Shown in pieces: positions 4,672 to 62,318 of a DNA stretch of 64,000 nt. The stretch is from contig JAQUNI010000001.1 in NCBI GenBank assembly GCA_028717685.1, positions 399,451 through 463,450 on the forward strand. Direction: 5' to 3'. The stretch comes from Patescibacteria group bacterium (GTDB lineage Bacteria; Patescibacteriota; JAQUNI01). The notes under the pieces are model-generated. The model saw only the letters and a list, made by a program, of their open reading frames with translations. It was not told the DNA's origin and ran no database searches. How positions within the stretch are numbered: the stretch's first letter is position 1; every line of letters begins with the position of its first letter. A program made the position numbers and the translations under genes.

Positions 4672-4675
4672 AAAT

Positions 4676-6022: not shown

Positions 6023-6032
6023 ATTTCTTTCG

Positions 6033-6133
6033 GTAATTAGTAATTAGTAATCAGTAATTGGTAATCAGTAATCAGGGAATTATTGGCCCGAAGGGCCAAA
6101 AAAATTACCAATTACTAATTACGGATTACTAGT
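6033..6133. repeat. AT-rich palindromic intergenic element, family C (word GTAATTAGTAATCAG) with GGCCCGAAGGGCC core
   Basis: Near-perfect 100-nt palindrome. A related copy lies at 36066-36135. Confidence 0.75.
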
Positions 6134-6157
6134 TTATTTTAACATAAGGTATTTGGT

Positions 6158-6186
6158 TTGACAACAATCATCTTTACAGATATAAT
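6158..6186 (+). promoter_or_regulatory. sigma70-type promoter, consensus TTGACA-17-TATAAT, upstream of rpsA
   Basis: TTGACA at 6158-6163, a 17-nt spacer, and TATAAT at 6181-6186. The AAGAGG SD precedes the ATG at 6240. Confidence 0.7.
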
Positions 6187-6239
6187 GGGCAATAGAACAA
6201 GAACTTAAGAGGTAGTGTCCACTTTACCTATCATTTTTT

Positions 6240-8877: not shown

Positions 8878-8992
8878 TTGAAAATACGGTTAGTATATAA
8901 AGAAAAGAGCCAATCTACACAATTTTATAACTTTAAAACCTGTGATGCGAATTATTAAACATAATAAATAACCCTATTTTTGTCAATAAAAT

Positions 8993-10903: not shown

Positions 10904-10906
10904 AGA

Positions 10907-11044
10907 ATTTCTAATTTTCAATTTCTAATTTCTATTAAATTTTTAATAGGTTAATTTTCAAATACTTGTTTTAAAAGGAAGTTTAAAAATTAAAACATTA
11001 GAAATTTAATGAAAATTTGTGCTTGAAAATTGAAAATTAAAAAA
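10907..11044. repeat. AT-rich palindromic intergenic element, family A (arms AATTTCTAATTTCTATTAAATTT / AAATTTAATAGAAATTAGAAATT)
   Basis: About 140 nt with about 30-nt terminal inverted repeats. Further copies at 24498-24636, 27207-27347, 39521-39768 and 60899-61052. Confidence 0.8.
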
Positions 11045-11388: not shown

Positions 11389-11489
11389 CCCCGTTAGAAA
11401 CATACCCCGCAGCTTGGCTAGCGGTTAACGTAGAAATATAGATAACTCGTGCGGTTGGGTTTCATGCCCCGCGCGAGTTTCTAACGGGG
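11389..11489 (+). other. long-loop hairpin with conserved arms CCCCGTTAGAAAC ... GTTTCTAACGGGG abutting a promoter -35
   Basis: 13-nt perfect inverted arms enclose a 75-nt GC-containing insert. The same arm sequence forms short hairpins at 32377-32408 and 60965-60996. Confidence 0.5.
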
Positions 11490-18273: not shown

Positions 18274-18312
18274 TCCTCCCACCCCCTCCATCTCCCCCTC
18301 GGGCAGGGGGAG
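18274..18312 (+). repeat. GC-rich dispersed repeat, family R (TCCCACCCCCTCCATCTCCCCCTCGGGCAGGGGGAG)
   Basis: Near-identical copies at 35191-35226, 45129-45165, 45271-45312, 45735-45774, and 62262-62318 (inverted). Contains the hairpin CTCCCCCTC-GGG-CAGGGGGAG. Confidence 0.8.
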
Positions 18313-18415
18313 TGCAATCTCCTCACGGAATGGCTCTTGCGTTACGCGTTATATGTTATAAGTTACACGAAGATGTGCTAAAATAAATTCACCCCTAATT
18401 CATGCTTCCTGATTT

Positions 18416-19621: not shown

Positions 19622-19744
19622 GGGGAACATCCCGAGAAATAAACCTCACAGAAATAAAAACACCTTTATTTAAGGGTGTTTTTATGTTTTGTAATTTAAA
19701 ATTCCAATTCCAAAATCACAAATTCTAAATAAACTTGAGTTCGA

Positions 19745-19832
19745 ATCGGGAATCAGGAATCATGAATGAGGAATTGAATTTTATAATTTATTCTTCTTTA
19801 TTCCTGATTCATAATTCATAATTCATGATTCC
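19745..19832. repeat. AT-rich palindromic element, family D copy
   Basis: GGGAATCAGGAATCATGAATGAGGAATTG ... TTCCTGATTCATAATTCATAATTCATGATTCC. Confidence 0.7.
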
Positions 19833-23913: not shown

Positions 23914-24507
23914 TCATCTTAAATTGCGTCCGCAAACACCCGTTAAAAAATCCACCTTCTCTTCCAAAGAGAGAGCGGTAAGCATAATATGCACCAGCCT
24001 GTCTTCCCCCCAAAATATTAAATGATCAATGTATTCCGCTATAACCTCATCGGCATCTACCGCTTTTTCCGCGCTATGGCCAAATTCATCTACCGCGCTC
24101 CAGACCACCCACGAGTCCGGGTCAGCGGAAAAATAATAATGACTGCGCTCACGATGCAAACTGCCGTCCAGCACATAGTAACGAATATATTGTATAGGCT
24201 CCAGGGTATGACCGTCTTGGAACATAATCTCCGCCGGCGGGGGACTATCCGGGTCATCGGAAACAGGAGGCAGATCGGTCACCAATTCTTGAGATTGCCG
24301 CAAATCACGGGTGATGCGATCCAGGGCGACGCGACCGTTTTGGGCTAATTCCACCTTTTTGTTTTCTTTCTCCGTAAAGCGCAAAGCTAAATCATAAGAA
24401 GCATAGGCAAGTAAAACAACAACTAAACCTACACTGATAGCCACTAAGATTTCGGCTAGCGTAAAACCTTTTTGGGAATTTAAATTAACCATTTTACGAA
24501 TTTTCAA
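23914..24507 (-). CDS. type IV pilin-like protein (prepilin N-terminal methylation motif)
   Basis: ...NSQKG|FTLAEILVAISVGLVVV, a class III signal with G-1/F+1/E+5. Confidence 0.7.
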   Translation of the reverse strand: MKIRKMVNLNSQKGFTLAEILVAISVGLVVVLLAYASYDLALRFTEKENKKVELAQNGRVALDRITRDLRQSQELVTDLPPVSDDPDSPPPAEIMFQDGHTLEPIQYIRYYVLDGSLHRERSHYYFSADPDSWVVWSAVDEFGHSAEKAVDADEVIAEYIDHLIFWGEDRLVHIMLTALSLEEKVDFLTGVCGRNLR

Positions 24508-24636
24508 TTTCTAATTTTCAATTTTTATTAAATTTCTAATGATTTAATTTTTAAACTTCCTTATTAAGAAATGAGTGTTTGAAAATTGATTCATTGAAAA
24601 TTTAATAGAAATTAGACATTGAAAATTAAAAATTAA
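24498..24636. repeat. AT-rich palindromic intergenic element, family A copy
   Basis: AATTTTCAATTTCTAATTTTCAATTTTTATTAAATTT ... AAATTTAATAGAAATTAGACATTGAAAATT. Confidence 0.8.
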
Positions 24637-24642
24637 TACCTG

Positions 24643-27206: not shown

Positions 27207-27347
27207 GAGAATTTTCAATTTCTAATTTTTAATTTTTATTAAATTTATAATTAACTAATTTTTAAACTTGTGTCAATCAGGAGGTAAGGGTTTGAAAATT
27301 AACTCATTAAAAATTTAATAGAAATTAGAAATTGAAAATTAGAAATT
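27207..27347. repeat. AT-rich palindromic intergenic element, family A copy
   Basis: Same arms as 10907-11044. Sits between pilB and pilC. Confidence 0.8.
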
Positions 27348-29100
27348 ACTCTTTGGTTACCCTCAACACCTCTTCCAGGGTTGTCACGCCCATCTTGGCT
27401 TTGTAAAACCCGTCTTCAATCATCCTCGTCATTCCCTCACTGATGGCTTGCTTTTCAATTTCTTCCGTGGGCGCCCGCTTTGTCGCTAAACTCTGAATAG
27501 CCTCGCTGACTTCCAAAACCTCAAAAATTCCTAAACGTCCTTTATAACCAGTGTTATTGCATTGGGCGCAGCCCCGTCCACGGTAGAATAATAAAGAATC
27601 CGGGGTGATCTTGCTGGACACGATAGCCCCTTCGCGGACCATAATCTCTAAGATTTTCTTCAGATTCACCTCACTCTCCAAATTCTGCCAAGCCGCGCGA
27701 TCAAGATGGAAACTTTCAATACAATTACTGCAAATCTTGCGCACCAATCTCTGGGCGATGATCACATTTAAGGTGGAAGCAAGAAGAAACGGCTCAATCT
27801 TCATGTCAATCAGGCGGGGAATCGCCCCAGCGGCGTTGTTCGTATGCAAAGTGGACAATACCAAATGACCAGTGAGAGAAGAATGAATCGCCATTTCCGC
27901 GGTCTCGCTGTCACGAATCTCTCCCACCATAATAATATCTGGATCTTGCCGGAGGAGCGACCTTAGGCCATTGGCAAAAGTATAACCGATTTTGGGCGCC
28001 ACCTGGCTCTGATTAATGCGGGGCATATGGTATTCAATGGGATCTTCAATGGTGCAAATATTCACCTCGGGAGTATTGAGAATGTTTAGAATACTGTAAA
28101 GCGTGGTAGTTTTACCCGATCCCGTGGGACCCGTAGAAAGAATCATGCCGTGAGGCCGATTGATATTTAATTTGACAATCTTTAAAGCATTGAGACGCAA
28201 ACCCATTTCTTCCATAGTGAACGGCTTGGCGGATTCAAAAAGGAGACGCATTACAATCTTCTCTCCATTAAAAACAGGAATTACGGAAACACGGAAAGAA
28301 ATTTTATATTCCTCATTTTCAATCTTAAACCGCCCATCTTGAGGCAGGCGATGTTCATCAATTTTGAGGTCAGAAAGCACTTTAATCCGCGCCACCACCC
28401 CTGCCAAGATCTTTTTGGGCAGACTCATCACATCCCTTAAAACCCCATCCACCCTATAGCGCACCACAATTTCTCCCTCTAAAGGTTCAATGTGAATATC
28501 AGAAGCGTTCTCGTAGATGGCATATTCCAAAAGCGTGTCCACGATTTTGACTACGGGCAGCTCTTTGGCCATTTTTCTTAAATCCTCGGCGTCTTCTGGC
28601 TCCCGAATGCCTTGTTTGTCAATAATTTCGGAGAATTCTGTTTTCAGGCTCTTGCGATACTGCTTTAAAACTTCACTGATACTGGTAGGTGTCGTCAGAA
28701 AAACCTCAATCTTCATTCCTGTCTTCTTCTCCATAAATTCAATGGTTTGCAAATCCGTGGGGTCTACCATCGCCAGTTTTAATTTCTCTTTGTCTTTCTC
28801 AAAAGCCACTACCTGATAGTTGCGCGCGATCGGCTCGGGAATGGAAAGAAGAACCTCCTTGGGAATTTTTTTCTTCTCAAGATTAACATAAGGAACCTTG
28901 GATGTTTCCGCATAATGTTCTGCTAATACCTCTTCGCTAACCATTCCTTGTTTAACCAGTTCGGCGGCTAAAGTCACCTTATCCTGCTTTGCTTGAAGGC
29001 TGGCCGCGCGAATTTTCTCCGCCGTCACTAAATTATTCTCGGTTAAAATTTTAATCAGTTCTTCGTCTTTGAAAAACATTGAAATAGAGTCAAAGCGCAA
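27346..29100 (-). CDS. pilB: type IV pilus assembly ATPase PilB (GspE family)
   Basis: GSPII_E N-domain, Walker A GPTGSGKTTT, Asp and His boxes, and a tetracysteine motif (CSNC...CAQC). Confidence 0.9.
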   Translation of the reverse strand: MRFDSISMFFKDEELIKILTENNLVTAEKIRAASLQAKQDKVTLAAELVKQGMVSEEVLAEHYAETSKVPYVNLEKKKIPKEVLLSIPEPIARNYQVVAFEKDKEKLKLAMVDPTDLQTIEFMEKKTGMKIEVFLTTPTSISEVLKQYRKSLKTEFSEIIDKQGIREPEDAEDLRKMAKELPVVKIVDTLLEYAIYENASDIHIEPLEGEIVVRYRVDGVLRDVMSLPKKILAGVVARIKVLSDLKIDEHRLPQDGRFKIENEEYKISFRVSVIPVFNGEKIVMRLLFESAKPFTMEEMGLRLNALKIVKLNINRPHGMILSTGPTGSGKTTTLYSILNILNTPEVNICTIEDPIEYHMPRINQSQVAPKIGYTFANGLRSLLRQDPDIIMVGEIRDSETAEMAIHSSLTGHLVLSTLHTNNAAGAIPRLIDMKIEPFLLASTLNVIIAQRLVRKICSNCIESFHLDRAAWQNLESEVNLKKILEIMVREGAIVSSKITPDSLLFYRGRGCAQCNNTGYKGRLGIFEVLEVSEAIQSLATKRAPTEEIEKQAISEGMTRMIEDGFYKAKMGVTTLEEVLRVTKE

Positions 29101-35015: not shown

Positions 35016-35190
35016 GCCTTAATAGGGAAGAAACGAAATATGGGGGGTAAAATCATACGATTTCAGAATCAAACAGAGTATTTTTTATTTTTTGTTTCTT
35101 ATTCATATATTTATGAAACTTCCATAAATATTCCTCCCCTTTGGAAAGCGGGAGGCTTAGGAGGGGTTCTGAAAGTTTATCAAGTTTATC

Positions 35191-35226
35191 TCCCACCCCC
35201 TCCACCTCCCCCTCAGGCAGGGGGAG
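35191..35226 (+). repeat. GC-rich dispersed repeat, family R copy
   Basis: TCCCACCCCCTCCACCTCCCCCTCAGGCAGGGGGAG. Confidence 0.8.
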
Positions 35227-35278
35227 TGAGTTTCGAATTCAAGGTATATTCTTAAAATAAGAAATAATTAAAAGCATC

Positions 35279-36070
35279 TCACATCTTCACTACTCTTTGA
35301 ATCCGCTCAATTCTGCCTGACCGTCCGGTTTTACTGTCAATTTCGCAAATAATCGCATTCACCGATACATCTCCCTCCGCGACCTCAAAACAAACAGGCA
35401 TTTGAGTGAGGAAATTAGCAATTACTAAATCCTTATCCACACCGATCACGGAATCGCGCGCGCCCACCATGCCAATATCGGTAATGTAGGCTGTGCCCTT
35501 GGGAAGAATGCGCTCATCCGCCGTCTGAATGTGGGTATGCGTACCCGCGACAAGAGACACCCTACCGTCCAGATACCAACCCAAAGCCATTGCTTCGCTT
35601 GTCGCTTCCGCGTGAAAATCCACTAGAATGATTTTGATTTTTTTTTCTTTCAATTCCTCTAAAATTTCATCCGCGCAACGGAAGGGGCAATCAAAATCTT
35701 CATTAAAAAAAACACGTCCCACCAGATTCACGACGGCAATCTTTTTGGTTCCAATTTCCATTATCTTGAAACCTCGCCCCGGCGCGCCCGGGGGATAATT
35801 GGCGGGCCTTAAAAGATCACTGTCTTTTTCGATTAAAATCTCGTGAGCCTGCTTTTGACTAAAAACGTGGTTTCCGGAAGTAAAAATCTCTATCCCAGAT
35901 TCGCGCAAAACACTTAAAGTTGCCCGCGTAACCCCTTTGCCGTGGGCTAAATTTTCACAATTAGCTAAAATTAAATCAGGCTCATAAGCCTTCTTTAGTT
36001 CAGGTAAAATTTTTTTGACTGCCAGGCGACCCGGACGACCGACAATATCGCCAAAAAAAAGAATGGTCAT
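35279..36070 (-). CDS. ymdB: YmdB-family metallophosphoesterase (TIGR00282)
   Basis: MTILFFGDIVGRPGR...ANCENLAHGKG...GNHVF. Positioned directly after rny. Confidence 0.85.
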   Translation of the reverse strand: MTILFFGDIVGRPGRLAVKKILPELKKAYEPDLILANCENLAHGKGVTRATLSVLRESGIEIFTSGNHVFSQKQAHEILIEKDSDLLRPANYPPGAPGRGFKIMEIGTKKIAVVNLVGRVFFNEDFDCPFRCADEILEELKEKKIKIILVDFHAEATSEAMALGWYLDGRVSLVAGTHTHIQTADERILPKGTAYITDIGMVGARDSVIGVDKDLVIANFLTQMPVCFEVAEGDVSVNAIICEIDSKTGRSGRIERIQRVVKM

Positions 36071-36135
36071 GAATAATAGTAATCAGTAATTAGTAATCGG
36101 TAATTGGTAATTAGTAATTGGTAACTTATAACTAA
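36066..36135. repeat. AT-rich palindromic element, family C copy
   Basis: AGTAATCAGTAATTAGTAATCGGTAATTGGTAATTAGTAATTGGTAAC. Confidence 0.65.
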
Positions 36136-36177
36136 TTAATCTAAATCACCATTTCCAATTATGAGCCGCGAGTTACC

Positions 36178-37698
36178 CTACCTTGCGTACTCCACCGACC
36201 TTGTCTCACGGATCACCGAGACCTTAATTTCTCCCGGATACTTTAACTCTTCTTCAATTTTAGCCGCAATCTCGTGAGACAATTTGACCGCTGCCAGGTC
36301 ATCAATCTTCTCCGGCGTCACGAAGACACGGATTTCGCGTCCGGCTTGGATGGCATAGCTCTTCTCCACTCCTTCAAAACTATTCGCTACCGCCTCCAAG
36401 TCTTCCAAACGATTTAAATAGTCTTCATAAGTATCCTTCCGCGCGCCCACCCGCGCTCCTGAAATGGCGTCCGCGGTCGTGACGATTAAAGCCTCGGAAG
36501 AACTATGGGGCACATCTTCATGATGCGACTCCATAGCCTGAATAATCTTCTCATCAATACTAAACTTTTTTAAAATACTCTTACCAATTTCAATATGCGT
36601 GCCTTTAATTTCGTGATCCACTGCCTTGCCAATATCATGTAAAAGTCCGGCTTTCTTCGCGAGAGCTGAATCCATTCCCAATTCTTCCGCTAAAAGACGA
36701 GCAAGGTGCGAAACCTCTAGAGAATGCTGCAACACATTTTGACCATAGCTAGTCCTGTATTTTAAACGACCTAAAAGCTGAACTAATTGCGGGGGCAAAC
36801 CCGCCACCCCCGCGTCATAACAGGCTGTTTCGCCCGCTTCCTTCATATCTTGGGCAATCTCTTTCTTGGCTTCCACGATTGTTTCCTCAATCCGAGCCGG
36901 GTGGATGCGACCATCAGCAATTAACTTTTCCAGAGTGCGCTTGGCGACCTGACGGCGAATCGGCGAAAAGCCGGAAATTACAATCGTTTCGGGCGTATCG
37001 TCAACAATAATCTCCACACCAATCAATTTCTCAATAGTATTAATATTGCGACCTTCGCGTCCAATAATCCGCCCTTTCATGTCGTCAGAGGGCAAGGAAA
37101 GAGTGGTAGATGTGGATTCTGCCGCGTGCGAAGAAGCGCACCTCTGAATCGCCAAAGACAAGATTTCTTTTGCCTTGCGACTGACCTCTTCCTGCTCTGT
37201 TTGTTCCAATTTTTTGATTCTTTGAAGCAATCGCTCTTTCATTCCTTCCTCTGTCATCTCCAAGAGCACATTTTTAGCTTCTTCCAGCGACAAATTCGCC
37301 ACTTTCTCTAATGTAGCCAGCTGTTTTCGCTTGAGCTGAATGATTTCCCGTTTCGCCTCCCGAATTTGATTTCTTTCTTTTTCTAAATATCTTTGATTTT
37401 TATCTAAATTGCCCAGCCTTTGGTCTAAAAGCTCCTCCCTTTGCACAAGCCTCCGCTCCAAGACCAAAATACTCTGCCTGCGTTCTTTATCTTCGCGTTT
37501 GGTCTCTTCCGTGTATTTGAAGGCTTGATCTTTAGCGGCTAAAAGGATCTCCTTAGCCTTTGTTTTAGCTTCTTCTAGCGCCTTTTGAGAACGCGCTTCG
37601 CTGGAATCCTGACGTCTTTGCGCTAAAACTTTGCGCAAAAAGTAACCCCCCGCTAAGCCCAAAATAGCGGCGAGAGGGAAAATGATAATATTGAACAT
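36178..37698 (-). CDS. rny: ribonuclease Y
   Basis: N-terminal TM helix, coiled coil, KH domain (GRIIGREGRNINTIEKLIG) and HD domain (HSLEVSHLARLLA...LLHDIGK). The start was chosen at MFNIIIFPL. Confidence 0.9.
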   Translation of the reverse strand: MFNIIIFPLAAILGLAGGYFLRKVLAQRRQDSSEARSQKALEEAKTKAKEILLAAKDQAFKYTEETKREDKERRQSILVLERRLVQREELLDQRLGNLDKNQRYLEKERNQIREAKREIIQLKRKQLATLEKVANLSLEEAKNVLLEMTEEGMKERLLQRIKKLEQTEQEEVSRKAKEILSLAIQRCASSHAAESTSTTLSLPSDDMKGRIIGREGRNINTIEKLIGVEIIVDDTPETIVISGFSPIRRQVAKRTLEKLIADGRIHPARIEETIVEAKKEIAQDMKEAGETACYDAGVAGLPPQLVQLLGRLKYRTSYGQNVLQHSLEVSHLARLLAEELGMDSALAKKAGLLHDIGKAVDHEIKGTHIEIGKSILKKFSIDEKIIQAMESHHEDVPHSSSEALIVTTADAISGARVGARKDTYEDYLNRLEDLEAVANSFEGVEKSYAIQAGREIRVFVTPEKIDDLAAVKLSHEIAAKIEEELKYPGEIKVSVIRETRSVEYAR

Positions 37699-37838
37699 TG
37701 TTTTTAGACATTGATAATCGGGAAACAGCTTGAAATAAATTTGGTATTCACTTTTAAATTGATGCAAAGGGGATTAATTTCAACGCTATTTTCATTATCA
37801 TATTATTATCTTAGATAAGTTTAAGTTTAACACGGATT

Positions 37839-37874
37839 TTGCCTCAAGGCAAATTTCGTTTTGCCTCAAGGCAA
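37839..37874 (+). promoter_or_regulatory. two tandem 14-bp palindromes TTGCCTCAAGGCAA (operator-like) just upstream of the rpmF promoter -35
   Basis: Identical palindromes at 37839-37852 and 37861-37874, centre-to-centre 22 bp. TTGACA follows at 37878-37883 and TAAGAT at 37901-37906. Confidence 0.45.
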
Positions 37875-37992
37875 ATTTTGACAAAGCGGAATAATTCAGG
37901 TAAGATAAAGGCATAAAAATCCTAAAATTTGAAACATGAAAGATGAAACATAATTAAAATGCTTCAAATTTCATGATTTATGTCACACGATT

Positions 37993-38238
37993 ATGGCTTT
38001 ACCCAAGAAAAAAATGAGCAGAGCGCGGAGACACAAACGCCGCGGCCAGCAAAAAATTAACCCCACCCTTCTCATTCTATGCGGTAAATGCCGCAAAATG
38101 ATCCTACCCCATAGGGTTTGCCAATATTGCGGCACCTATAAAGGAAGGCTTATTATAGATTTAGAAGCAAAAGCCAAAAAGAAAAAAAAAGAAGCAAAAA
38201 GAAAAAAACAAAACTTAAGAATAGAACTTTATGGCTAA
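37993..38238 (+). CDS. rpmF: 50S ribosomal protein L32 with Lys-rich C-terminal extension
   Basis: [17 protein letters not shown]...CGKC...[13 protein letters not shown], the L32 zinc-ribbon pattern, plus a [12 protein letters not shown] tail. Confidence 0.8.
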
Positions 38239-38671
38239 TCGACATCTCCTGCGCACAATTGCGATGCAATGCCTTTATGAATGGGATTTTTCGGGTCAGA
38301 ACCAGAAAAAAATCCAATTGATCATTCAACATAATACTAAAGAGTTCGCACCGGGCATCAGTGATTTTGATTTTGTCAAAAAGCTCGTGGCCGGGGTCAT
38401 TAAAAATCAAGAAAAGATTGACGCGCTTATTGAAAAACACGCGCCCGAATGGCCCCTGAATCAAATTACCACTGTAGACCGGAATATCCTGCGCCTCGGC
38501 ATTTTCGAGCTCAAATTTGACAACGATGTCCCGCCTAAGGTAGCAATTAATGAAGCGATTGAGCTCGGCAAGGCTTACGGCGGACCCTCTTCGGGCAAGT
38601 TTATTAACGGAGTTTTAGGCACAATCTACCGCAAAATGATTGAAAAAGGGGACGTGAAAGAGGAAAAATAG
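38231..38671 (+). CDS. nusB: transcription antitermination factor NusB
   Basis: NusB fold motifs ([17 protein letters not shown]...[12 protein letters not shown]...[13 protein letters not shown]). Confidence 0.85.
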
Positions 38672-38699
38672 AATTTCTTCGTTGTTTTATCAAAATAAT

Positions 38700-38820
38700 A
38701 AATCCAAAATCCAAACATCAAATTTCAAATCAAATCCAAAATCCTAATCCCAAAATTTTGAGTTTCGGATTTTGAGCTTTGAGCTTGATTTGGCATTTGG
38801 GCTTTGAAATTTGGATTTAA
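38700..38820. repeat. AT-rich palindromic element, family G (word AATCCAAAATCC / GGATTTTGAG)
   Basis: AATCCAAAATCCAAACATCAAATTTCAAATCAAATCCAAAATCC ... GGATTTTGAGCTTTGAGCTTGATTTGGCATTTGGGCTTTGAAATTTGGATTT. Confidence 0.65.
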
Positions 38821-39512
38821 GCCCTATGAAAAAATTTTCTGCCCTGGAAAAAAATTTAGATGTGAAATTTAAAAATCAAGACTTATTGAAACAGGCTCTT
38901 GTCCATCGCTCCTATATTAACGAAAATCCCGGATTTCGCCTCCCCCACAATGAAAGATTGGAATTCTTGGGCGACGCGGTCTTGGAACTTATAGTAACGG
39001 AAAATCTTTTTAATCATTACAATAACCCTGAAGGAGAAATGACCAATTGGCGCTCCAGCCTGGTCAACAGCAAAATATTGGCCATTGTCTCCCGCGACCT
39101 CGGCGTGGAAGATTTTCTCTATTTGTCTAAAGGCGAGACGCGCGACACAGGCAAGGCGCGGGAATATATTTTAGGCAATGCCTTTGAAGCCATCACCGGC
39201 GCGATTTATTTAGATCAAGGCTATGCTGTCACGAGGAGATTTATAAAAAACAAGCTGCTGACGCATCTGCCTAAAATTCTGGCTGAAAAATTATACATTG
39301 ATCCCAAGTCGCATTTTCAAGAACTTACGCAAGAAAAAGAAGGCGTTACTCCTGAATACAAAGTTTTAGAAGAGAGAGGTCCGGATCACGCGAAACACTT
39401 TGAGGTGGGGGTTTACGTGGGAAAAATGATGATGGGCAAGGGCAAAGGCACTTCTAAACAATTGGCGCAGGTGGAAGCGGCGAAAGACGCGCTGGAAAGA
39501 TATAAAAAATAA
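38811..39512 (+). CDS. rnc: ribonuclease III
   Basis: RNase III signature ERLEFLGDAVLE plus a C-terminal dsRBD. Confidence 0.9.
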   Translation: MDLSPMKKFSALEKNLDVKFKNQDLLKQALVHRSYINENPGFRLPHNERLEFLGDAVLELIVTENLFNHYNNPEGEMTNWRSSLVNSKILAIVSRDLGVEDFLYLSKGETRDTGKAREYILGNAFEAITGAIYLDQGYAVTRRFIKNKLLTHLPKILAEKLYIDPKSHFQELTQEKEGVTPEYKVLEERGPDHAKHFEVGVYVGKMMMGKGKGTSKQLAQVEAAKDALERYKK

Positions 39513-39520
39513 AATGTCAT

Positions 39521-39768
39521 AGGTTAAAATTTCTAATTTCTAATTTTTCTGGCTTCGCCAGATCTCGCATAGCGAGACAATTTTTATTAAATTTTTAATA
39601 AAATAATTTCTAAACTTTAAGAATGAATTGCCTAGCCGCCAGTTAGGCTAGCGGGAATAGCTTTTCCATTATAAATGGTAAATGAGTTACGAGAATTTGA
39701 TCTTTATTTGTTTAAAAATTAAGTAAATAGAAATTTAATAAAAATTAGAAATTGAAAATTAAAAATTA
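39521..39768. repeat. composite intergenic element: family A arms enclosing a CTGGCTTCGCCAGATCTCGCATAGCGAGAC module and other hairpins
   Basis: Family A arms at both ends. The inner module is shared with 62925-62990. Contains GCCTAGCCGCCAGTTAGGCTAGCGG hairpins. Confidence 0.65.
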
Positions 39769-40732
39769 CTTAAAAACACTCCAAGATTTGTTTGAGAGTC
39801 TAAGAGTTAATCAAGCCGTTGGCAAAATAGCAATTTTAGGGGTATTATTTGCCGCTATTTTTTTGTCTTTTTCCGTCTCTCGCGCCCAAAACACCGCTCC
39901 CGAACGGACAATCACAATCATTGACAACGGCCTTTATTTCCAGGTTAAAACAGAGAAAAATTTAGTTTCGGAAATCCTGGTTGATTTGGACCTATCCTTA
40001 AATCCTGAAGATAGAATTTATCCCAGCCTAAACGAAGAAGCCCTCTGGCGCATTATCATTGAAAGGGCAACCCCAATCACAATCCTTGCTGATGGAAAGG
40101 CAAAATCTCTTGTTACCTTTGCTAAAACCGCGGGGGCGGCATTAGAAGAAGCCCAAATCACATTGAATCCTGATGATGAAGTGAATTATGCTGCGGACAC
40201 GTCCCTTTTTTCCAATATGGAGATTGTAGTGACCAGAATCAAACTTGGCACTGTCACCAAAGATGTGTCCATACCATTCCAAACTGTGAATAAAAAAGAC
40301 GACACGCTGCTCTGGGGAAAATTCAAAATCGCCCAGGAAGGAAAAACAGGGCTCAAAGAACAGGTATATAAAGTAATCTATAAAAACGGCGAAGAAGCAA
40401 AACGGATTTTGGAAAAAGAAACCATTTTGCAAAAACCTCAAGATAAGATTATCCTGGAGGGAACAAAAATAGTGCTAGGGGAGGCGAATTACGGCATCGC
40501 CAGCTTCTACCGCTATGGCGATAAATTGACTTGCGCGTCCACGCGTTTTCCCATGGGAACACCCTTGCGGGTCACGAACACGGCAAACGGACAAGCGGTA
40601 ATTGTAACCGTGAATGATTATGGCCCTTTTGTGCTGGGACGGATTGTGGATTTAAACATACCGGCATTTGAAAAAATCGCGCCCCTCGGAACAGGATTGG
40701 CAAGAGTGAAGGTGGAGGAAATAATAGATTGA
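39752..40732 (+). CDS. RlpA-like (double-psi beta-barrel) domain protein with N-terminal DUF348/G5-like region
   Basis: C-terminal ...IASFYRYGDKLTCASTRFPMGTPLRVTNTANGQAVIVTVNDYGPF, the RlpA/3D DPBB. TTG start in the ORF track, and the start is uncertain. Confidence 0.7.
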   Translation: MKIKNYLKTLQDLFESLRVNQAVGKIAILGVLFAAIFLSFSVSRAQNTAPERTITIIDNGLYFQVKTEKNLVSEILVDLDLSLNPEDRIYPSLNEEALWRIIIERATPITILADGKAKSLVTFAKTAGAALEEAQITLNPDDEVNYAADTSLFSNMEIVVTRIKLGTVTKDVSIPFQTVNKKDDTLLWGKFKIAQEGKTGLKEQVYKVIYKNGEEAKRILEKETILQKPQDKIILEGTKIVLGEANYGIASFYRYGDKLTCASTRFPMGTPLRVTNTANGQAVIVTVNDYGPFVLGRIVDLNIPAFEKIAPLGTGLARVKVEEIID

Positions 40733-40890
40733 AATTATTCTAATTAACCTAATTGTTCTAATTATTCTAAAGAATGACCAAATCTTGAATTACCCAATGA
40801 TTTACCTTGATGATTGTTTTTGTTAATTGGGATTTAGACATTGGGATTTATTTAGGTTAATTAGGTCAATTAGAACAATTAGAATAATTT
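40733..40890. repeat. AT-rich palindromic intergenic element, family B copy
   Basis: GAAATTATTCTAATTAACCTAATTGTTCTAATTATTCTAAAGAATGACC ... GGTCAATTAGAACAATTAGAATAATTTT. Confidence 0.8.
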
Positions 40891-40985
40891 TGGAGGTGAA
40901 GGGATAAAGTATATCACGGTGAATACCGTGGCTTGAATTCCCAAAATAATTTTCACATTTTGATTTGTTATTTTACATTTTTCAC

Positions 40986-44681: not shown

Positions 44682-47600
44682 ATGGTAAAAAATACGGAAG
44701 GCGAGGGGGAAGAAGCGCCTTTAGAAAAAGATAAGGGGCGAAAAAAAAGAAGAGAGGTAAAAAATAAACACAAAAACAAATCAGAGCCCTTGGACCCTGA
44801 CGAGGAAAAAGATATTCCAGAGGAAACGGAGAAAAAGAAAGGAATTACCCCCGATAAAGTGCGGGCGATTTTAGATAATTTAGGGCGAGAATTGCCTCCG
44901 GAAAAATTGGAAATCATGACAAAGGGAGGAAAGGAAATTACGGTGCGCTTTCATCCTGATCTCGCGGAAAATAATTTTCCGGGTTTAATTTCCAAATTAG
45001 AAACCGAGAAGGGCGTTAAAATCATTCCTAAATGGGATGATGGAGTGGACATGGAAAAGGGGTTTGTGATTGTGTCCGAAACAGTCCCTGAAAAGCCAGA
45101 AACGGCTTTAGAACCAGCGGAGCAAGAGCTCCCACCCCCTCCATCTCCCCCTCTGGCAGGGGGAGAGCCACTCCCACCCCCTCCAAATACAGAAAAAGAG
45201 CAAAAGACCCCAGACGGGAACACCCCCGAAAAAAGCGCTAGCGAACCAGAGGAAAAAGGCAATGGAGAGCCACTCCCACCCCCTCTTGCCTCCCCGCTCG
45301 AGGCAGGGGGAGAAGAATCTCTTTTAGAAGAGATCAAATCTAAACAAGAAGAAACCGAGCCTAAACAGAAAGAGGTAAAGATTGAGGAGGTTATTTTGGA
45401 AAAAACGGCGGCAAAGACCGAGACAGAAAAAAAAACAGAAAAAAAAGAAATCCCGCCGCGGGTTCAAGAAGTTTTAGACCGCTTAAACGCGGAGTTGGAA
45501 AAGCATAACGATGTAGAGGAAGTTAATGTTGTTTTTAATTATAAACTGGCAAATAGCCCCCTGGGTGCAGATATTAAAAAGCTCCGACCCCAAAGCTACA
45601 AAAAAATTCAAATAATCAACTATTGGAAAGAAAAAGGGGGCGTTTTTCCTCTTGGTTTTATAATTGAAGAAATAAAAAAGGGGAAATCCGAAGAAAAAGA
45701 AGCAACCCCCGAAAAAAAACCCGAGGAAAAGCCGCTCCCACCCCCTCTTGCCTCCCCGCTCGAGGCAGGGGGAGAAGAATCTCTTTTAAAAGAAATCAAA
45801 TCTAAACAAGAAAAGACCAAGCCCCCACAAAAAACAGAAGAAAAGAATGTCCCTCCGAAAGAAGAAAAAAAAGAAACAGAAATTCCTCAAAATGTGGAAG
45901 TATTACTTTCACTCTTAGATTCAAAAATAGCCGAATTTCAAACAGCCCATCCAGAAGTAAAAGACATTGACATTCTTTTTAGCGAGGAACTTATAAAAAA
46001 ACTGGGGGTAGAATATGGCGATGAAAAACAACAAGCAATCTGGCAAAAGATTGACTCCATCAAAGAAAAAGGATTCAATGTGCTAAATCGTATTTTTGAA
46101 GACAAGAAGATACCCGAAGAAGAGGCGGTAAGGATTGAGAAGGTTGTTTTGAAAAAAGCAGGGGCAGAGACCAAAACAAAAAGAAAAATAACCCCCACGG
46201 AAAAAGGCGAGATAAAGGAAGAGCCTTCCCGGGAAAAAACCACTCCCACCCCCTTTAACTCCCCCTCCCTCCTTCGTCCGCCAGAGGCGGACTTCGGCGG
46301 GCAAGCAGGCAGGGGGAGCGCCACAGAAAAACCGCGAGAACCAATATTCGCGGCGCGGAAAACAGAGGATAAAACGAAAGGACCCAGAGCAGATGAGGAG
46401 AAGCAGAAACCGGGCAAAGTGGCGCGAGAGGCAGAGACCCTAATGGAAATACAACCCTCTCCATCCCGCGTGTCAGAAGAACGGCTTACTGAAAAGCGCA
46501 AAGAATATTTAGAAGCCAAAAGACTGCGCGGCAAATTTATTGGCCGCGGCGAATTTAAAGGCAAAGAGGGAGAAGCGAAACTTGCTCAAATCGGTGAAGA
46601 ATATAGCAAAATGCGCGCTGAATACATTCGCGGCAAAGCGTCAGAAGTATTGAAAGAACAGAAGCTGCCCGCGACGGAATTGAAAACAAAGGTCGTGGAA
46701 AAGCTTCTGGAAGAATACAACAAAGAGGACGGGGAACGGGAAAAATTGATTGTGGGCAGGGAAAAAGGCTTAGGGCAGAGGTTTAAAGAATGGTGGCGCC
46801 GCCATCCTAAAGCGCGAATGCTCGTTGGTTATGGCTTAACCGGCGCTTCGGTAGGGAGTATGCTTTCAGGGCAGCTCTGGCTGACTCCTTGGCTTATCGG
46901 CGCCCGAGCCGCTTTTGCAGGGACGGGCGCGGCTCTAGGCACCGAAGGGATGTTATCCCGCTATTCTAAAACCTTAGGCGAAAAAGGGCTTGTGAATGAG
47001 TTAGTTAAATTTAACAAAGAAGAAAAGGCTAAGCTCAAAAAAATCAAAGACAAAGGAGAACAGGAAAAAGCGCGCCAAAAAATGATTAACGATAACATTG
47101 CTAAAATCTCGCCCGAGAATTTAGCGCGCGAAATGGGGCGCGTCAAAGCCCTGCAAGAGAAAAAGGGGGTAAAACTAGAGAAGATAGGACCATACGGCGC
47201 AGTGCTTTCGGCTCTCCGGGCGCGGGAGCAAGAGCTTTTAAAGAAACGGATAACAGAAGCAATGGAAAAAGGAGAAAAGACTAAAGAAGATTTGCTTTTT
47301 GAAGCTATAAACTCCGGTTTGGAAAGAGAAGCAAGGGAAATGGACGAAAATGTAGAAAAGGCGGGAGAGGCGGAAAGAAAAAAGGCAATCAAAAGGTGGG
47401 TCTTCAGCAGTAGCGCCGGAGCAATCACAGCCGGACTCACCGCTTGGTGGGGATTTCACAGGCTTGGAGAAATTTCAGGCAAGGGAAAAATAGCAGGGAG
47501 CGCGGCTCACGCAAAAACGGCTCTGGGTCCGCCAGCGCCAGAGGGGTTGGCAAAAAATTTTGAGGTTGTTGCCGCCAAGGGCGACTCGGTCTGGAAAATG

Positions 47601-48449
47601 GCAAAGCGCGCTTTGGCGGAAAAATATGGCAGCCGCTTTACCAATCTTGACGAAGCGCGCCGCACTTATGTCATTGACGCCGTAAAAGATAAAATCGCGA
47701 AAAACCCCGCGCGTTTTGGTCTAATTGATATAGACAGGGTAAAAATTGGCCAAAAAATAGATTTTGGCGGATTAATAAATAATAAGAGTTTAATGGAAGA
47801 AACCTTTGGCAAAGCGGGACGTCTAACGGGAGAACAAGCAAAGAATATTTTAATCAATAATGAGACAGTGCAAGAATTTCACCATCTCCATCCGGAAATT
47901 CGGTTGGACAGCGAAAATATAGATTCAATTTTGGCAGGCAGAGGGAGAGAAATCCTGGGAACGGAACCCGCGGCGGCGCAGACAGATATCAGCGCGCCAG
48001 AAATTGCTCCCGAAGAAACCCCGAGCTTGGAAGAAAGCGCGATTCCTACTGAAACTGAAGCTGCAAAAACAGAAACGCCGCAGATAGAAGAGACGCAAAG
48101 TCCAAAGACGGAAACCCCTTCTCCGGAAGTTGCTCCAGAGCAAGATATATCCGAAGCAATGATTCAAGAAATTCCCGACTGGACTCCGGAAAAGATTGCC
48201 AAGACCACTCTGCCCTTGATTCAAAAAAATCCAAAACTGAATACGGTCAAGGGAATTTTAGAACATTATCTAGCTAATCTAAAAAACGGCGAGATTTTTT
48301 TACCCGAGCAAGAACAAGCCAATACTGCTATCAAAGAAATAACTAAAAGAACCGAGGGACTCGGAGAGAGCGTGGCGGAAAGATACGAAAAAATCCTGTT
48401 GGAAAACACCAAAGTTTTCATAGGCATTGCCACGATGGGGAGAGAATAG
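44682..48449 (+). CDS. giant Lys/Glu-rich repeat protein with central TM segment and C-terminal LysM-like motif
   Basis: 1255 aa. The repeat PPPLASPLEAGGEESLL(E/K)EIKSKQE occurs at least three times, each copy encoded by a GC-rich family R element. A hydrophobic region lies at 46795-46960. LysM-like GDSVWKMAKRA...IGQKIDF near the C-terminus. Confidence 0.7.
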   Translation: MVKNTEGEGEEAPLEKDKGRKKRREVKNKHKNKSEPLDPDEEKDIPEETEKKKGITPDKVRAILDNLGRELPPEKLEIMTKGGKEITVRFHPDLAENNFPGLISKLETEKGVKIIPKWDDGVDMEKGFVIVSETVPEKPETALEPAEQELPPPPSPPLAGGEPLPPPPNTEKEQKTPDGNTPEKSASEPEEKGNGEPLPPPLASPLEAGGEESLLEEIKSKQEETEPKQKEVKIEEVILEKTAAKTETEKKTEKKEIPPRVQEVLDRLNAELEKHNDVEEVNVVFNYKLANSPLGADIKKLRPQSYKKIQIINYWKEKGGVFPLGFIIEEIKKGKSEEKEATPEKKPEEKPLPPPLASPLEAGGEESLLKEIKSKQEKTKPPQKTEEKNVPPKEEKKETEIPQNVEVLLSLLDSKIAEFQTAHPEVKDIDILFSEELIKKLGVEYGDEKQQAIWQKIDSIKEKGFNVLNRIFEDKKIPEEEAVRIEKVVLKKAGAETKTKRKITPTEKGEIKEEPSREKTTPTPFNSPSLLRPPEADFGGQAGRGSATEKPREPIFAARKTEDKTKGPRADEEKQKPGKVAREAETLMEIQPSPSRVSEERLTEKRKEYLEAKRLRGKFIGRGEFKGKEGEAKLAQIGEEYSKMRAEYIRGKASEVLKEQKLPATELKTKVVEKLLEEYNKEDGEREKLIVGREKGLGQRFKEWWRRHPKARMLVGYGLTGASVGSMLSGQLWLTPWLIGARAAFAGTGAALGTEGMLSRYSKTLGEKGLVNELVKFNKEEKAKLKKIKDKGEQEKARQKMINDNIAKISPENLAREMGRVKALQEKKGVKLEKIGPYGAVLSALRAREQELLKKRITEAMEKGEKTKEDLLFEAINSGLEREAREMDENVEKAGEAERKKAIKRWVFSSSAGAITAGLTAWWGFHRLGEISGKGKIAGSAAHAKTALGPPAPEGLAKNFEVVAAKGDSVWKMAKRALAEKYGSRFTNLDEARRTYVIDAVKDKIAKNPARFGLIDIDRVKIGQKIDFGGLINNKSLMEETFGKAGRLTGEQAKNILINNETVQEFHHLHPEIRLDSENIDSILAGRGREILGTEPAAAQTDISAPEIAPEETPSLEESAIPTETEAAKTETPQIEETQSPKTETPSPEVAPEQDISEAMIQEIPDWTPEKIAKTTLPLIQKNPKLNTVKGILEHYLANLKNGEIFLPEQEQANTAIKEITKRTEGLGESVAERYEKILLENTKVFIGIATMGRE
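45129..45165 (+). repeat. family R GC-rich repeat copy inserted in-frame in CDS 44682-48449
   Basis: CTCCCACCCCCTCCATCTCCCCCTCTGGCAGGGGGAG. Further in-frame copies at 45271-45312 and 45735-45774, and a degenerate one at 46243-46320. Confidence 0.8.
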
Positions 48450-48454
48450 ACCCC

Positions 48455-48660
48455 CCTCTTTTCTCTGTTGGCTCCATAGTCCCGAGCGGAAGCGAGGGCT
48501 GTGGAGCCATAATGCTTCATAAAGACCCCCTCCAGAACCTCCCCTCACCCCTCCTTGGAAAGGAGGGGATAATCAGAACCCCCTCTTCGCTCCCCCTTTA
48601 AAAGGGGGAGATAGTATGTCCTCCCCTTTCCAAGGGGAGGGTGGGAGGGGTCTAAAAATA
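48455..48660. repeat. composite GC-rich repeat island (modules GTTGGCTCCATAGT, CCCCTCCTTGGAAAGGAGGGGATAAT, CCCCCTTTAAAAGGGGGAG)
   Basis: It shares modules with the islands at 51165-51360 and 58330-58640. Multiple GC hairpins sit in an otherwise AT-rich context. Confidence 0.7.
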
Positions 48661-48677
48661 CCACATAAAAAAAATAA

Positions 48678-48718
48678 GCCCAGAGTCAACGTATGATGTT
48701 GAACTCTGGGCTTTTTGG
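48678..48718. terminator. bidirectional intrinsic terminator between convergent genes
   Basis: GCCCAGAGTCAAC-GTATGAT-GTTGAACTCTGGGC flanked by A-run and T-run. Confidence 0.7.
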
Positions 48719-51078: not shown

Positions 51079-51164
51079 GGATTTTTACCTGAAAATCCAA
51101 AGTAATCCAGATTTTGGCTAAAATAAGGCACAAATGGAATAGGGAATTAGGAATCATGAATCAG

Positions 51165-51360
51165 GGATAGACCCCCTCCCCGCCCGCCATCGCTTCGCTC
51201 AGGCGAGGCGGGCGGGCACCTCCCCCTTCCGCCCAAGGCGGACAGGCAGGGCAGGGGGGAGTGAGAATCTTCCCCTCCTTGGAAGAAAGGAGGGGATAAT
51301 AAATCCTCCCCTCAACCCGTGGGAGGTTTTTTAAAAAGGGGTCTCTAATAATTCTGCGGA
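51165..51360. repeat. composite GC-rich repeat island (modules GCCCGCCATCGCTTCGCTCAGGCGAGGCGGGCGGGC; CCCCTCCTTGGAAGAAAGGAGGGGATAAT)
   Basis: Shares modules with 48455-48660 and 58330-58640. Confidence 0.7.
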
Positions 51361-58329: not shown

Positions 58330-58640
58330 GGAGAAATGAAAAGTGAAACCCCCTAAATCCCCTTTATCAGGGGGATTTTAATTTCTTCCTTCTGTGACCC
58401 ACGCGCTCTAGGAGAGAGTTGTTGGCTCCATAGTGGCGTTAGCCCTATGGAGTCAGGATGCAAGCCGTAAAGAAAAAATATGATCAGACTTTAATGCTGT
58501 TTCGCATTGCGGCTCCACAGCCTGCCCGCCATCGCTTGCGCTTCAGGCGTTAGCGGGCGGGCCCCTCGCTTCGCTCGGGGACTATGGAGCCAACAGACCC
58601 CCTCCAACTCCCCCTTGGTAAGGGGGAGTGAAATCAAGCC
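58330..58640. repeat. composite GC-rich repeat island with 14-nt outer inverted arms GTTGGCTCCATAGT / ACTATGGAGCCAAC enclosing about 146 nt
   Basis: Arms at 58421-58434 and 58581-58594. Inner modules CCTGCCCGCCATCGCTTGCGCTTCAGGCGTTAGCGGGCGGGC. Flanked by hairpins CCCCTTTATCAGGGGG and CTCCCCCTTGGTAAGGGGGAG. Confidence 0.7.
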
Positions 58641-60898: not shown

Positions 60899-61052
60899 AA
60901 AATAGAAATTTCTAATTTTAAATTTTCAATTTCTATTAAATTTCTAATGACTAAATTTTCAAACCCCGTTAGAAATGAAAAATTTCTAAACGGGGCAAAC
61001 AGTTTAAAAATTAATTCATTGAAAATTTAATGAAAATTGAAAATTGAAAATT
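60899..61052. repeat. AT-rich palindromic intergenic element, family A copy carrying an internal CCCCGTTAGAAAT...ATTTCTAAACGGGG hairpin
   Basis: Arms AATTTCTAATTTTAAATTTTCAATTTCTATTAAATTT ... AAATTTAATGAAAATTGAAAATTGAAAATT. Confidence 0.8.
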
Positions 61053-61059
61053 TTTCAAA

Positions 61060-61530
61060 TTACGCCCTGCGAATTGCCTTTACTAATAAAATCACTACTC
61101 CTGCAACAATCATTATATCCGCGACATTAAACACCGGCCAAAATGCCAAGTTCAAATAATCTATCACATAACCAAAGCGGAGGCGGTCAAGCACGTTAGA
61201 GAACGCGCCTGCTCCCAACAGCACTAAACCGCAAAGAGAGGAAAAATCTTTTTTTTGCCAAAATTTCCGCCCCCAGTAATATAAAAACACGCAAAGCAAT
61301 GCCGTAATTAAATAAAAAAACACGACAGACCACGCGCCATCGCTGGACGGGGCGGGCAGGGGAATCCCGAAAGCAATGCCGTAATTACGGTAAAATTCCA
61401 AAGAAAAAAAATGACCTAAAATAAAAAAATTGGGTCTGCCCGCGAGAACATAGCCAGCCCAATTTTTTAAAATTTGGTCTAAGATGAATAACCCTCCCGC
61501 CAGTGCAAAACACCACTTAAGTTTGCGCAT
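61060..61530 (-). CDS. lspA: lipoprotein signal peptidase (signal peptidase II)
   Basis: 4 TM segments, with conserved Asn/Asp blocks (...FNVADI...). Confidence 0.85.
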   Translation of the reverse strand: MRKLKWCFALAGGLFILDQILKNWAGYVLAGRPNFFILGHFFSLEFYRNYGIAFGIPLPAPSSDGAWSVVFFYLITALLCVFLYYWGRKFWQKKDFSSLCGLVLLGAGAFSNVLDRLRFGYVIDYLNLAFWPVFNVADIMIVAGVVILLVKAIRRA

Positions 61531-62093: not shown

Positions 62094-62261
62094 AAAATTA
62101 GTTTTTTATTTTTAGTCCTGCAACCTTAATCTAAGTTTATAATACCCGACAAGAAAAGGCAAGGATTAAATTTTTAATTTTTAATTTTCATTAAATTTTC
62201 AAGAAATTAATTTTTAAACCTCTTTTATTTCCTAATTAGTATAGGTTTCTTTAAATTGCGA

Positions 62262-62318
62262 AACCCACCCCCCCCCCCTGCCTTGAGCGGGGAGGCAAGA
62301 GGGGGTGGGAGCTCCAAT
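62262..62318 (-). repeat. family R GC-rich repeat copy (inverted orientation)
   Basis: Reverse complement reads GGAGCTCCCACCCCCTCTTGCCTCCCCGCTCAAGGCAGGGGGGGGG. The 78-aa ORF 62225-62461 translates through it and is probably spurious. Confidence 0.75.

Follow-up and report, generated by a model that had tools for sequence, protein, structure and literature searches.

Why does one short GC-rich repeat stand both between genes and, in frame, inside a protein-coding gene? The question is raised by a 64,000-nucleotide stretch of contig JAQUNI010000001.1 from a Patescibacteria group bacterium (the whole stretch is called the window here). An initial annotation had noticed such a repeat within the coding sequence (CDS) of a 1255-aa protein and at several intergenic sites of the window. 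Our analysis showed that it is a widespread hairpin repeat of Patescibacteria, 13 codons long, which occurs in genes as readily as between them. Very probably, it is a miniature non-autonomous selfish mobile element of these bacteria.

The window has a GC content of ~42%, and the expected counts were taken from shuffled sequences. The 13-mer CTCCCACCCCCTC, with at most one mismatch allowed, occurs eight times against 0.05 expected: seven of the sites are on the plus strand (18276, 35190, 45129, 45171, 45273, 45735, and 46243) and one is on the minus strand (62299–62311). The second half of the initially described motif, which is the hairpin half of the variant designated type B, gave three matches against none expected. 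Thus, the proposal of a non-random repeat common to the CDS and the intergenic DNA was confirmed. A repeat finder placed the CTCCCACCCCCTC sites into one family, the copies of which are 93–95% identical to one another, and the type B copies of the CDS are 97% complementary to 62274–62312. The copies listed originally (in the CDS and near 18276, 35190, and 62270–62311) were all recovered, and those at 58597–58630, 48539–48651, and 51171–51263 are added here (Table 1).

The unit, first described as 40 nt long, is in fact 39 nt, that is, 13 codons. It consists of the CTCCCACCCCCTC tail, a Y-A-R spacer, the CTCCCCCT stem, a loop of 5 nt (mostly CGGGC), the AGGGGGAG stem, and two end bases (mostly A/T/G, then A/G). 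The consensus of this canonical form, type A, is CTCCCACCCCCTCYNNCTCCCCCTCGGGCAGGGGGAGRR. Type B, the second subtype in the window, is 42 nt long (CTCCCACCCCCTCTTGCCTCCCCGCTCRAGGCAGGGGGAGAA), folds differently from type A, and has been seen only in this lineage so far. In the alignment of 69 non-redundant copies drawn from the window and other genomes, the information content is ~0 bits up to position 0, high over positions 1–39, and ~0 again from position 42. It should be noted that the collection scan fixed positions 1–13 and 17–22 of this alignment, and that the regular expression by which the 69 copies were chosen fixed 23–24 and 30–37; the unconstrained ones are the flanks, the spacer (14–16), the loop (25–29), and positions 38–39. 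The 3' arm is near-invariant also in a looser set of copies with the positions from 23 onward left unconstrained. The minimum-free-energy fold is an 8-bp hairpin with −8.8 kcal/mol as DNA. No target-site duplication was found for k = 2–6 at any offset, and no conserved flanking or target motif is present in the flanks, where the information is ~0.

One base pair outside the stem stands out in this alignment. Positions 14 and 39 covary in Watson–Crick fashion (C-G in 38 copies, T-A in 29, and C-A in 2), and among the 43 distinct sequences the pair is CG in 23, UA in 18, and another combination in 2. Both the C-G and the T-A states co-occur within single genomes. The same 43 variants are largely free of stop codons: six frames are open in 22 of them, five in 12, four in 8, and three in 1. 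The stronger statement that the element is open in all six frames and creates no junction stops proved only partly true, as a few junction contexts can create a stop. A covariance model was built from the 43 variants and run on the window without filters (scores in Table 1). In the search of the window against Rfam 15, only tRNAs reached the gathering threshold; the sub-threshold matches (BLV_package, whalefall-1, and miRNA hairpins; 18–27 bits against thresholds of 37–100) were set aside as noise.

The CDS that carries the repeat is real, as had been proposed: the open reading frame (ORF) was found, and the gene has a syntenic ortholog. Its protein (PHW01_02270) is K/E-rich with two hydrophobic segments predicted, and no Pfam domain was found in its 1255 aa. 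Among 5.8 billion protein clusters, the sole full-length relative is a 1169-aa protein (P0002) from a metagenome-assembled genome (MAG) of Candidatus Doudnabacteria, with 77% amino-acid identity. A query with the C-terminal half added two relatives (P0123 and P0124; one of 682 aa and one protein 30% identical), and no orthologs beyond these three were found. Since there is no Pfam domain and the relatives are so few, the protein, as judged from its sequence, is a lineage-restricted family with no function assigned by domain. The elements sit in its N-terminal half, in indel-rich K/E/P-rich linkers. This half has a modular look, in which three "modules" can be discerned; these are seen by eye only, because a blastp self-comparison of the protein gave no internal repeats at E ≤ 1.

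The initial count of three or four in-frame copies agrees with our result of four copies and one stub. Copies 1–3 begin in codon phase 0 of the host gene and copy 4 in phase 1. The peptide assigned to them all, LPPPLASPLEAGGE, is encoded only by the two type B copies; copy 1 encodes LPPPPSPPLAGGE, and copy 4, in its different phase, reads PTPFNSPS...GRGS. The duplicated block around the type B copies is also real, its length being 126 nt (45246–45371 and 45708–45833, 85% identical) rather than ~90 nt.

For the comparison with a close relative, we used the syntenic locus of the sister Doudnabacteria genome (L001), which carries the gene of the ortholog. The gene order YmdB, RNase Y, L32, NusB, RNase III, SMC, S16, DUF5663, and the host gene is common to both genomes, the comparison spans 16 kb of synteny, and the DNA identity over conserved genes is 90–95%. 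Both LPPPLASPLEAGGE copies and the insert nested in copy 4 are missing from the ortholog, and the L001 flanks at all three places align at ~90%. Opposite the first type B copy, L001 has a 36-nt gap; in the protein alignment, a single Gln codon takes the place of 13 codons. The second lies within an 81-nt gap, and it is best explained as the product of an intragenic duplication or conversion, not of an independent insertion, because this gap also holds sequence matching the flanks of the first copy. Copy 4 is unsplit in L001 at 11394–11432 (CTCCCTCCCCCTCCACCTCCCCCTCGGGCAGGGGGAGTG, 59.4 bits), and its loop in the window holds an extra 39 nt, so that the nested hairpin of family S is a clean 39-nt presence/absence difference. 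Copy 1 and the stub are present in both genomes; the window copy 1 is perfect, and the L001 copy (10418–10459) has 8–9 substitutions. The changes in copy 1 are all on one lineage, which suggests homogenisation or re-insertion, or else accelerated decay. Judged from the alignment, copies 1 and 4 were in place before the two genomes diverged.

The indels of at least 9 nt in the host gene are all multiples of three, except for one 20-nt gap in an ambiguously aligned stretch, which a second alignment resolves into gaps totalling 27 nt. Besides these, the syntenic 16 kb contain at least 10 hairpin indels that are GC-rich and belong to several families, one of them a clean 40-nt intergenic insertion with identical flanks. 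A 90-nt block composed of one type C and one type A hairpin is specific to L001, in the cluster orthologous to 48539–48651. L001 also has in-frame insertions that are absent from the window: 108 nt (6090–6197) and a 27-nt hairpin (7240–7266) in SMC, the former palindromic and flanked by a 10-nt direct repeat (GGGGGTAAAC-like), as well as 144 nt (8916–9059) in the C-terminal tail of ribosomal protein S16. Because hairpin-element indels recur in this way across the syntenic region, the elements are gained or lost on a time scale of 5–10% sequence divergence. As a separate observation, L001 carries a 23S_rRNA_IVP-family gene (5228–5593) that is missing at the same place in the window (40849–40983).

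The same repeat was then sought in one genome per species (185,579 species) with the pattern CTCCCACCCCCTC-N3-4-CTCCCC, which gave at least 120 loci. The full element is present in ~85 among the matches listed, and these are near-identical outside the spacer and the loop. Matches in high-GC genomes (Streptomyces and others) were rejected as chance occurrences with no hairpin. The element-bearing MAGs among the matches listed are those of Doudnabacteria, Andersenbacteria, Uhrbacteria, Buchananbacteria, Magasanikbacteria, Kaiserbacteria, Moraniibacteriota, and "Patescibacteria group", together with Third Party Annotation (TPA) MAGs labelled Saccharibacteria, Gammaproteobacteria, or Verrucomicrobiota. 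Such TPA labels as "Gammaproteobacteria" look wrong and are regarded as doubtful, because in one MAG labelled "uncultured Gammaproteobacteria" (L051, CAYHHR010000005.1) the named top relatives of GatA are from Patescibacteria, Magasanikbacteria, or the Parcubacteria group, one further relative being named only "bacterium". A phage vector was also considered and rejected; the single match in the viral contigs is a Pro-rich coding region with no hairpin. Elements of a similar design, with a C-rich tail and a CTCCCCC...GGGGGAG hairpin with other loops, were seen outside Patescibacteria in a Longilinea MAG (L037, 4459–4480) and a Methylomirabilota MAG (L041, 7851–7900), which hints at a wider superfamily.

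To count copies in coding DNA, an ORF was required to extend at least 60 codons on both sides of the element. By this measure, 42 of the 83 non-redundant copies among the matches listed lie in long ORFs, and they are distributed over all six frames (11, 6, and 7 on the same strand; 8, 9, and 1 on the opposite strand). At the loci with GC ≤ 0.5, long ORFs contain 48% of 60 elements against 54% of random 39-mers from the same loci; with a 100-codon requirement, the values are 37% and 35%. By this ORF-length proxy, there is no detectable depletion of the element from coding DNA. The confirmed host ORFs are true housekeeping genes, encoding LeuRS (three genomes), PheT (two), a P-type ATPase, a MurD-like ligase, the CCA-adding enzyme, MnmA, GatA, and TruB; CysRS, KsgA, and phosphoglucomutase were recognised by inspecting the translations, not by Pfam. 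The element is frequently located within a conserved domain of the host enzyme. In the three LeuRS genes it stands at different sites, and at two sites the same loop is filled by different elements or frames across genomes. The GatA host has 488 aa; the segment is missing from its four closest relatives (81–86% identity), which have 474 aa, and in several of the more distant ones peptides of other GC-rich elements occupy the same loop after DGxRYGVR. The solved GatA of P. aeruginosa has a 10-residue gap at the inserted segment, and the AlphaFold model of the GatA host has a predicted local distance difference test (pLDDT) score below 50 over residues 317–384, too low to place the insert.

The peptides predicted from the six frames are LPPPLTPPRAGGE, SHPLQLPLGQGE, PTPSNSPSGRGR, LPLPEGELEGVG, SPPARGGVGGGGS, and the rare LSPSRRGRWRGWE. 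The reading frame of the host is always kept, because the unit is 3n long and is inserted without duplication. A simple explanation of the tolerance in coding DNA would combine this 3n length with mostly stop-free variants and Pro/Gly/Ser/Glu-rich predicted peptides. That the Trp/Arg-rich frame is so rare (1 of 42) is consistent with purifying selection acting on the peptide.

The reading that we consider very probable, that of a miniature selfish mobile element, also has to accommodate the arrangements seen, which are single copies, head-to-tail copies, inverted clusters, and copies with other hairpins nested in the loop; the loop nesting recurs. In the mechanism that we propose, a trans-acting enzyme would recognise the hairpin, possibly on single-stranded DNA, and make new copies. 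Position 14, at the 5' side of the hairpin foot, and the 3'-terminal position 39 would then form a pairing of the guide/cleavage-site type, such as is used by the HUH Y1 transposases (IS200/IS605 and RAYT, the REP-associated tyrosine transposase). Insertions into genes would persist since the 3n unit leaves the frame intact, five or six frames are free of stops in most variants, and the predicted peptides, rich in Pro, Gly, Ser, and Glu, would sit in loops or linkers. Such a single-strand hairpin enzyme is favoured because the lack of target-site duplications (TSDs) and terminal inverted repeats (TIRs), the asymmetric tail, and the 14:39 covariation recall IS200/IS605 and REP/RAYT. By analogy it is a candidate mechanism, in itself rather unlikely, and the searches for a Y1 gene, for related IS ends, for a GTAG or CGTC tag, and for an overall orientation bias lent it no positive support.

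Several points weigh against this picture. No mobilising gene was found, and the window has no Y1 gene according to phmmer searches with IS200 and IS608 TnpA queries (approximate sequences) and a 3-sequence profile. In ~0.9 Mb around the elements, there is one canonical IS200/IS605 TnpA, and the ends of its element are unrelated to the repeat. The scan required 19 exact bases and at least 120 loci were listed, so the conservation and the breadth are partly ascertained. All the data come from MAGs, "in CDS" stands for an ORF-length proxy, and the insert peptides are predicted from sequence alone. No outgroup polarises gain versus loss for the first type B copy, the nested element, or the other indels. 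The coding indels do not fall exactly at the element ends: the first type B gap measures 36 nt rather than 39 or 42, and GatA differs from its closest relative by a net 33 nt at the DNA level. Finally, the 14:39 pair might reflect two old subfamilies, and the variants with a 4-nt spacer have T..G there.

The IS200/IS605 element mentioned above lies in the sister Doudnabacteria genome (L053, 8–720; gene 8–451; TnpA of 147 aa, NF033573, E 7e-43), where it is multi-copy (also at L126, L182, and L191), with copies at several contig ends. It was rejected as the source, its ends being CCACCGAC-NNN-GTCGGTGG hairpins unrelated to type A. The 10-mer CTTCGTCCGC common to this resident element and the nested family S is too weak to count. 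An inverted dimer of type A and type C as the obligatory unit was likewise rejected, since a strict type C partner occurs within 120 nt in only ~10% of the copies.

Of the other explanations, the one that survives best takes the repeat for a functional cis-element (a binding site, DNA uptake signal, RNA stabiliser, or terminator), maintained by selection and spread by recombination; we consider it improbable. DNA uptake is believed to be a necessity for candidate phyla radiation (CPR) bacteria, the core shows extreme conservation between class-level lineages, clusters stand at the 3' ends of genes, and copy 1 is still a perfect consensus while that of the ortholog has decayed. Nearly all the copies of the window and L001 also share one orientation (6 of 7 and 4 of 4, respectively). 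However, the count for all loci together, 15 same against 7 opposite, does not reach significance, and a replication-strand bias was rejected on the same count; the density is only ~1 per 5–8 kb. The discrete presence/absence indels of 39–40 nt speak for insertion and not for gradual mutation. No T-run follows the hairpin, and a separate ordinary terminator hairpin (~48677–48716) comes after the cluster 48539–48651. The placement in any frame within conserved enzyme domains is also hard to square with regulation.

A purely local origin, in which slippage during replication or duplication within a gene of low complexity made the coding copies, has clearly less in its favour and seems very improbable. 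It would account for the block 45721–45801, in which the element is copied together with its flanks, and for the head-to-tail stub at 45171. Nevertheless, it accounts for one copy only, and leaves aside the near-identical intergenic copies 10–27 kb away and those in the housekeeping genes of other genomes; as a complete explanation it is refuted.

More improbable still is that the coding copies are an ancestral Pro-rich linker motif (LPPPL..AGGE) of the repeat architecture of the protein, the intergenic copies being pseudogene fragments. The modular N-terminal half, the position of the LPPPLASPLEAGGE copies in the 126-nt duplication, and the presence of copies 1 and 4 in the ortholog would suit such an origin. 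Against it, the ortholog lacks both LPPPLASPLEAGGE copies, copy 4 is in a different phase, and the intergenic copies stop sharply at 39 nt with flanks unlike the gene. It is the nucleotides, not the peptide, that are conserved, in six frames and in unrelated proteins, so that an ancestral peptide motif does not account for the coding copies. We conclude that this explanation is already largely refuted; the condition that the initial annotation had named as refuting its own reading thus did not refute it, and that reading is supported. An assembly or binning artefact, with a common contaminant spliced into MAG contigs, is hardly credible: all the sequences are metagenome-assembled and the 39-mer is suspiciously uniform, yet it comes from many independent studies and assemblers with differing flanks (GC 0.39–0.63), the locus was recovered in both JGI and ENA assemblies (L001 and L002), decayed, nested, and subfamily variants exist, and reading frames are always preserved.

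Table 1. Repeat copies and associated features of the window (bits, covariance-model score).
Positions	Strand	Feature	Score
44682–48449	+	Host CDS, 1255 aa	ORF list; syntenic ortholog
45129–45167	+	Type A, copy 1; perfect consensus, phase 0, encodes LPPPPSPPLAGGE	66.3 bits
45171–45184	+	Stub: truncated 5' tail (CTCCCACCCCCTCC), 3 nt past copy 1, of a further copy placed head-to-tail	
45273–45314	+	Type B, 42 nt; encodes LPPPLASPLEAGGE; absent from ortholog	
45721–45801	+	81-nt block absent from ortholog: second type B (45735–45776) and flanks copied from 45246–45371	
46243–46320	+	Type A, copy 4; phase 1, split into a 5' part (46243–46266) and a 3' part (46306–46320)	
46267–46305	+	Nested 39-nt hairpin of family S (CCCTCCTTCGTCCGCCAGAGGCGGACTTCGGCGGGCAAG) in the loop of copy 4; encodes LLRPPEADFGGQA	
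18276–18314	+	Type A, intergenic, between TrmB-like and ECF sigma factor genes	65.4 bits
35190–35228	+	Type A, intergenic, between HU and YmdB genes	64.8 bits
35130–35168		Inverted companion hairpin, type C-like, near the 35190 copy	
48539–48651	mixed polarity	BIME-like cluster of diverged copies right after the host stop codon	
51171–51263	+	Intergenic composite: type A broken by nested hairpins 51180–51216 and 51228–51250	z −4.7
58597–58630	+	Type A, intergenic, 5'-truncated, adjoining GC-rich hairpin composite 58511–58591	40.7 bits
62270–62311	−	Type B, intergenic	29.8 bits

The cluster behind the host gene consists of the parts 48539–48570 and 48578–48613, both in plus orientation, and a type C hairpin (48620–48651) in the opposite polarity. 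At least three other GC-rich hairpin families nest in or abut type A. One, CCGCCCGCC..GGCGGGCGG, is found at 51180–51216 and 58524–58563, and a 40-nt copy of it is a clean insertion at L001 3152; another, GGCTCCATAG..CTGTGGAGCC, is found at 48470–48508 and 58511–58591; the third is the nested FGGQA-type element at 46267–46305. At 48452, a 74-nt block specific to the window stands between the two halves of an ACCCCC(C)TC direct repeat.

The window contains further repeats of other kinds. AT-rich intergenic palindromes of ~140 nt, built of 7-nt periodic units (AATTTTC/AATTTCT), lie at 10905–11039, 24498–24635, 27209–27348, 39557–39768, 60906–61060, and 62161–62221 and form long hairpins (z −4.7 for 24490–24640). 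Intergenic tandem heptamer tracts (GTAATTA/GTAATCA and GAATCAG-like), some as inverted pairs, lie at 6012–6130, 36065–36143, 4672–4720, 19743–19777, and 51137–51171. The cumulative GC skew has its minimum at ~36000–40000, and the genes turn from mostly minus to plus at ~37.9 kb (RNase Y/L32); the minimum could correspond to a replication origin or merely to the strand switch.

To our knowledge, "protein-coding palindromes" that are in frame have been regarded as essentially peculiar to Rickettsia. Behaviour of this type is now found in a different and very large radiation of ultra-small bacteria, with a far smaller element, which coding DNA tolerates about as well as other DNA does. If this is general, it would explain many lineage-specific insertions in CPR marker proteins and would bear on alignments, phylogenomics, structure prediction, and gene calling. 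It would also provide a natural experiment on which of the loops in essential enzymes accept 13 extra residues, the 39-mer with its testable 14:39 pairing would be a clean substrate for finding a new mobilisation activity, and presence or absence between near-identical genomes could serve as strain markers. We tentatively propose, at rather less than an even chance, a Patescibacteria-wide family of 13-codon "gene-compatible" selfish elements, whose 3n length without duplication, mostly stop-free composition, and loop-forming peptides would have been shaped by genomes with almost no non-coding space and which would be moved by a hairpin enzyme that reads the 14:39 pair; together with its sister hairpin families of 39–40 nt, it may be a major and still active source of lineage-specific insertions in the housekeeping proteins of CPR bacteria (aminoacyl-tRNA synthetases, GatA, and TruB).

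Among the known systems, a repeat of the clustered regularly interspaced short palindromic repeats (CRISPR) type was rejected, as the copies are dispersed or irregularly clustered and form no regularly spaced array. An IS200/IS605-derived miniature (PATE-like) was rejected as well, since the ends do not match the hairpins of the resident insertion sequence. No prior description was found in the full-text literature, either by sequence or by combining CPR/Patescibacteria with the names of the repeat classes discussed below, a search that left subscription journals mostly outside. The GC clusters of yeast mitochondria offer an analogy: they are short GC-rich hairpins in an AT-rich compact genome, with an in-frame copy in VAR1 and frequent nesting and clustering. 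They belong to an organellar eukaryotic system and are unrelated in sequence, so this is an analogy only.

Bacterial MITEs (miniature transposable elements bearing inverted repeats) can become joined in frame to ORFs of the host, examples being Coxiella QMITE1, ERIC, and Nezha (PMC5896051, PMC10969869). Like them, the present element is a small non-autonomous repeat able to extend or modify host proteins; MITEs are 70–300 bp long and have TIRs and TSDs, whereas the element has none of these features. A likeness in form is also seen with the repetitive extragenic palindromes (REPs), the bacterial interspersed mosaic elements (BIMEs), and the REPINs: an imperfect palindrome of 20–40 nt (here 39 nt long, the stem being 8 bp), a tail that is conserved and asymmetric, neither TIRs nor a TSD, and an arrangement as singles, inverted pairs, and mosaic clusters downstream of genes. 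Clusters of alternating orientation, a BIME trait, are present at 48539–48651 and 35130–35228 and at L001 13526–13740. REPs have a GTAG or CGTC tag at one end, and a minority of their copies lie inside genes (PMC3733652). In contrast, our element has no such tag, about half of its copies are intragenic rather than a small minority, and its core is conserved across distant lineages, while REPs are species-specific. No RAYT gene adjoining the copies was seen in the window and the ~0.9 Mb of sampled loci.

The Rickettsia palindromic elements (RPEs), to which the repeat was originally compared, resemble it in behaviour. Many genes with no relation to one another contain in-frame insertions of these elements, of which there are families RPE-1 to RPE-10 (Ogata et al. 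2000/2002, as summarised in PMC10969869 and PMC3733652). RPEs are ~100–150 bp long and confined to one genus, and according to PMC10969869 each family encodes a conserved peptide. Both systems consist of dispersed hairpin repeats of a reduced genome, located in frame in unrelated functional genes as well as between genes; TruB is a host in both. The comparison thus holds for the behaviour and not for membership in the family: the element, set apart by its size and its host in a different phylum with no sequence comparison to an RPE consensus involved, is 39 nt long, is read in six frames, occurs in many Patescibacteria lineages, and has no detectable depletion from coding DNA.

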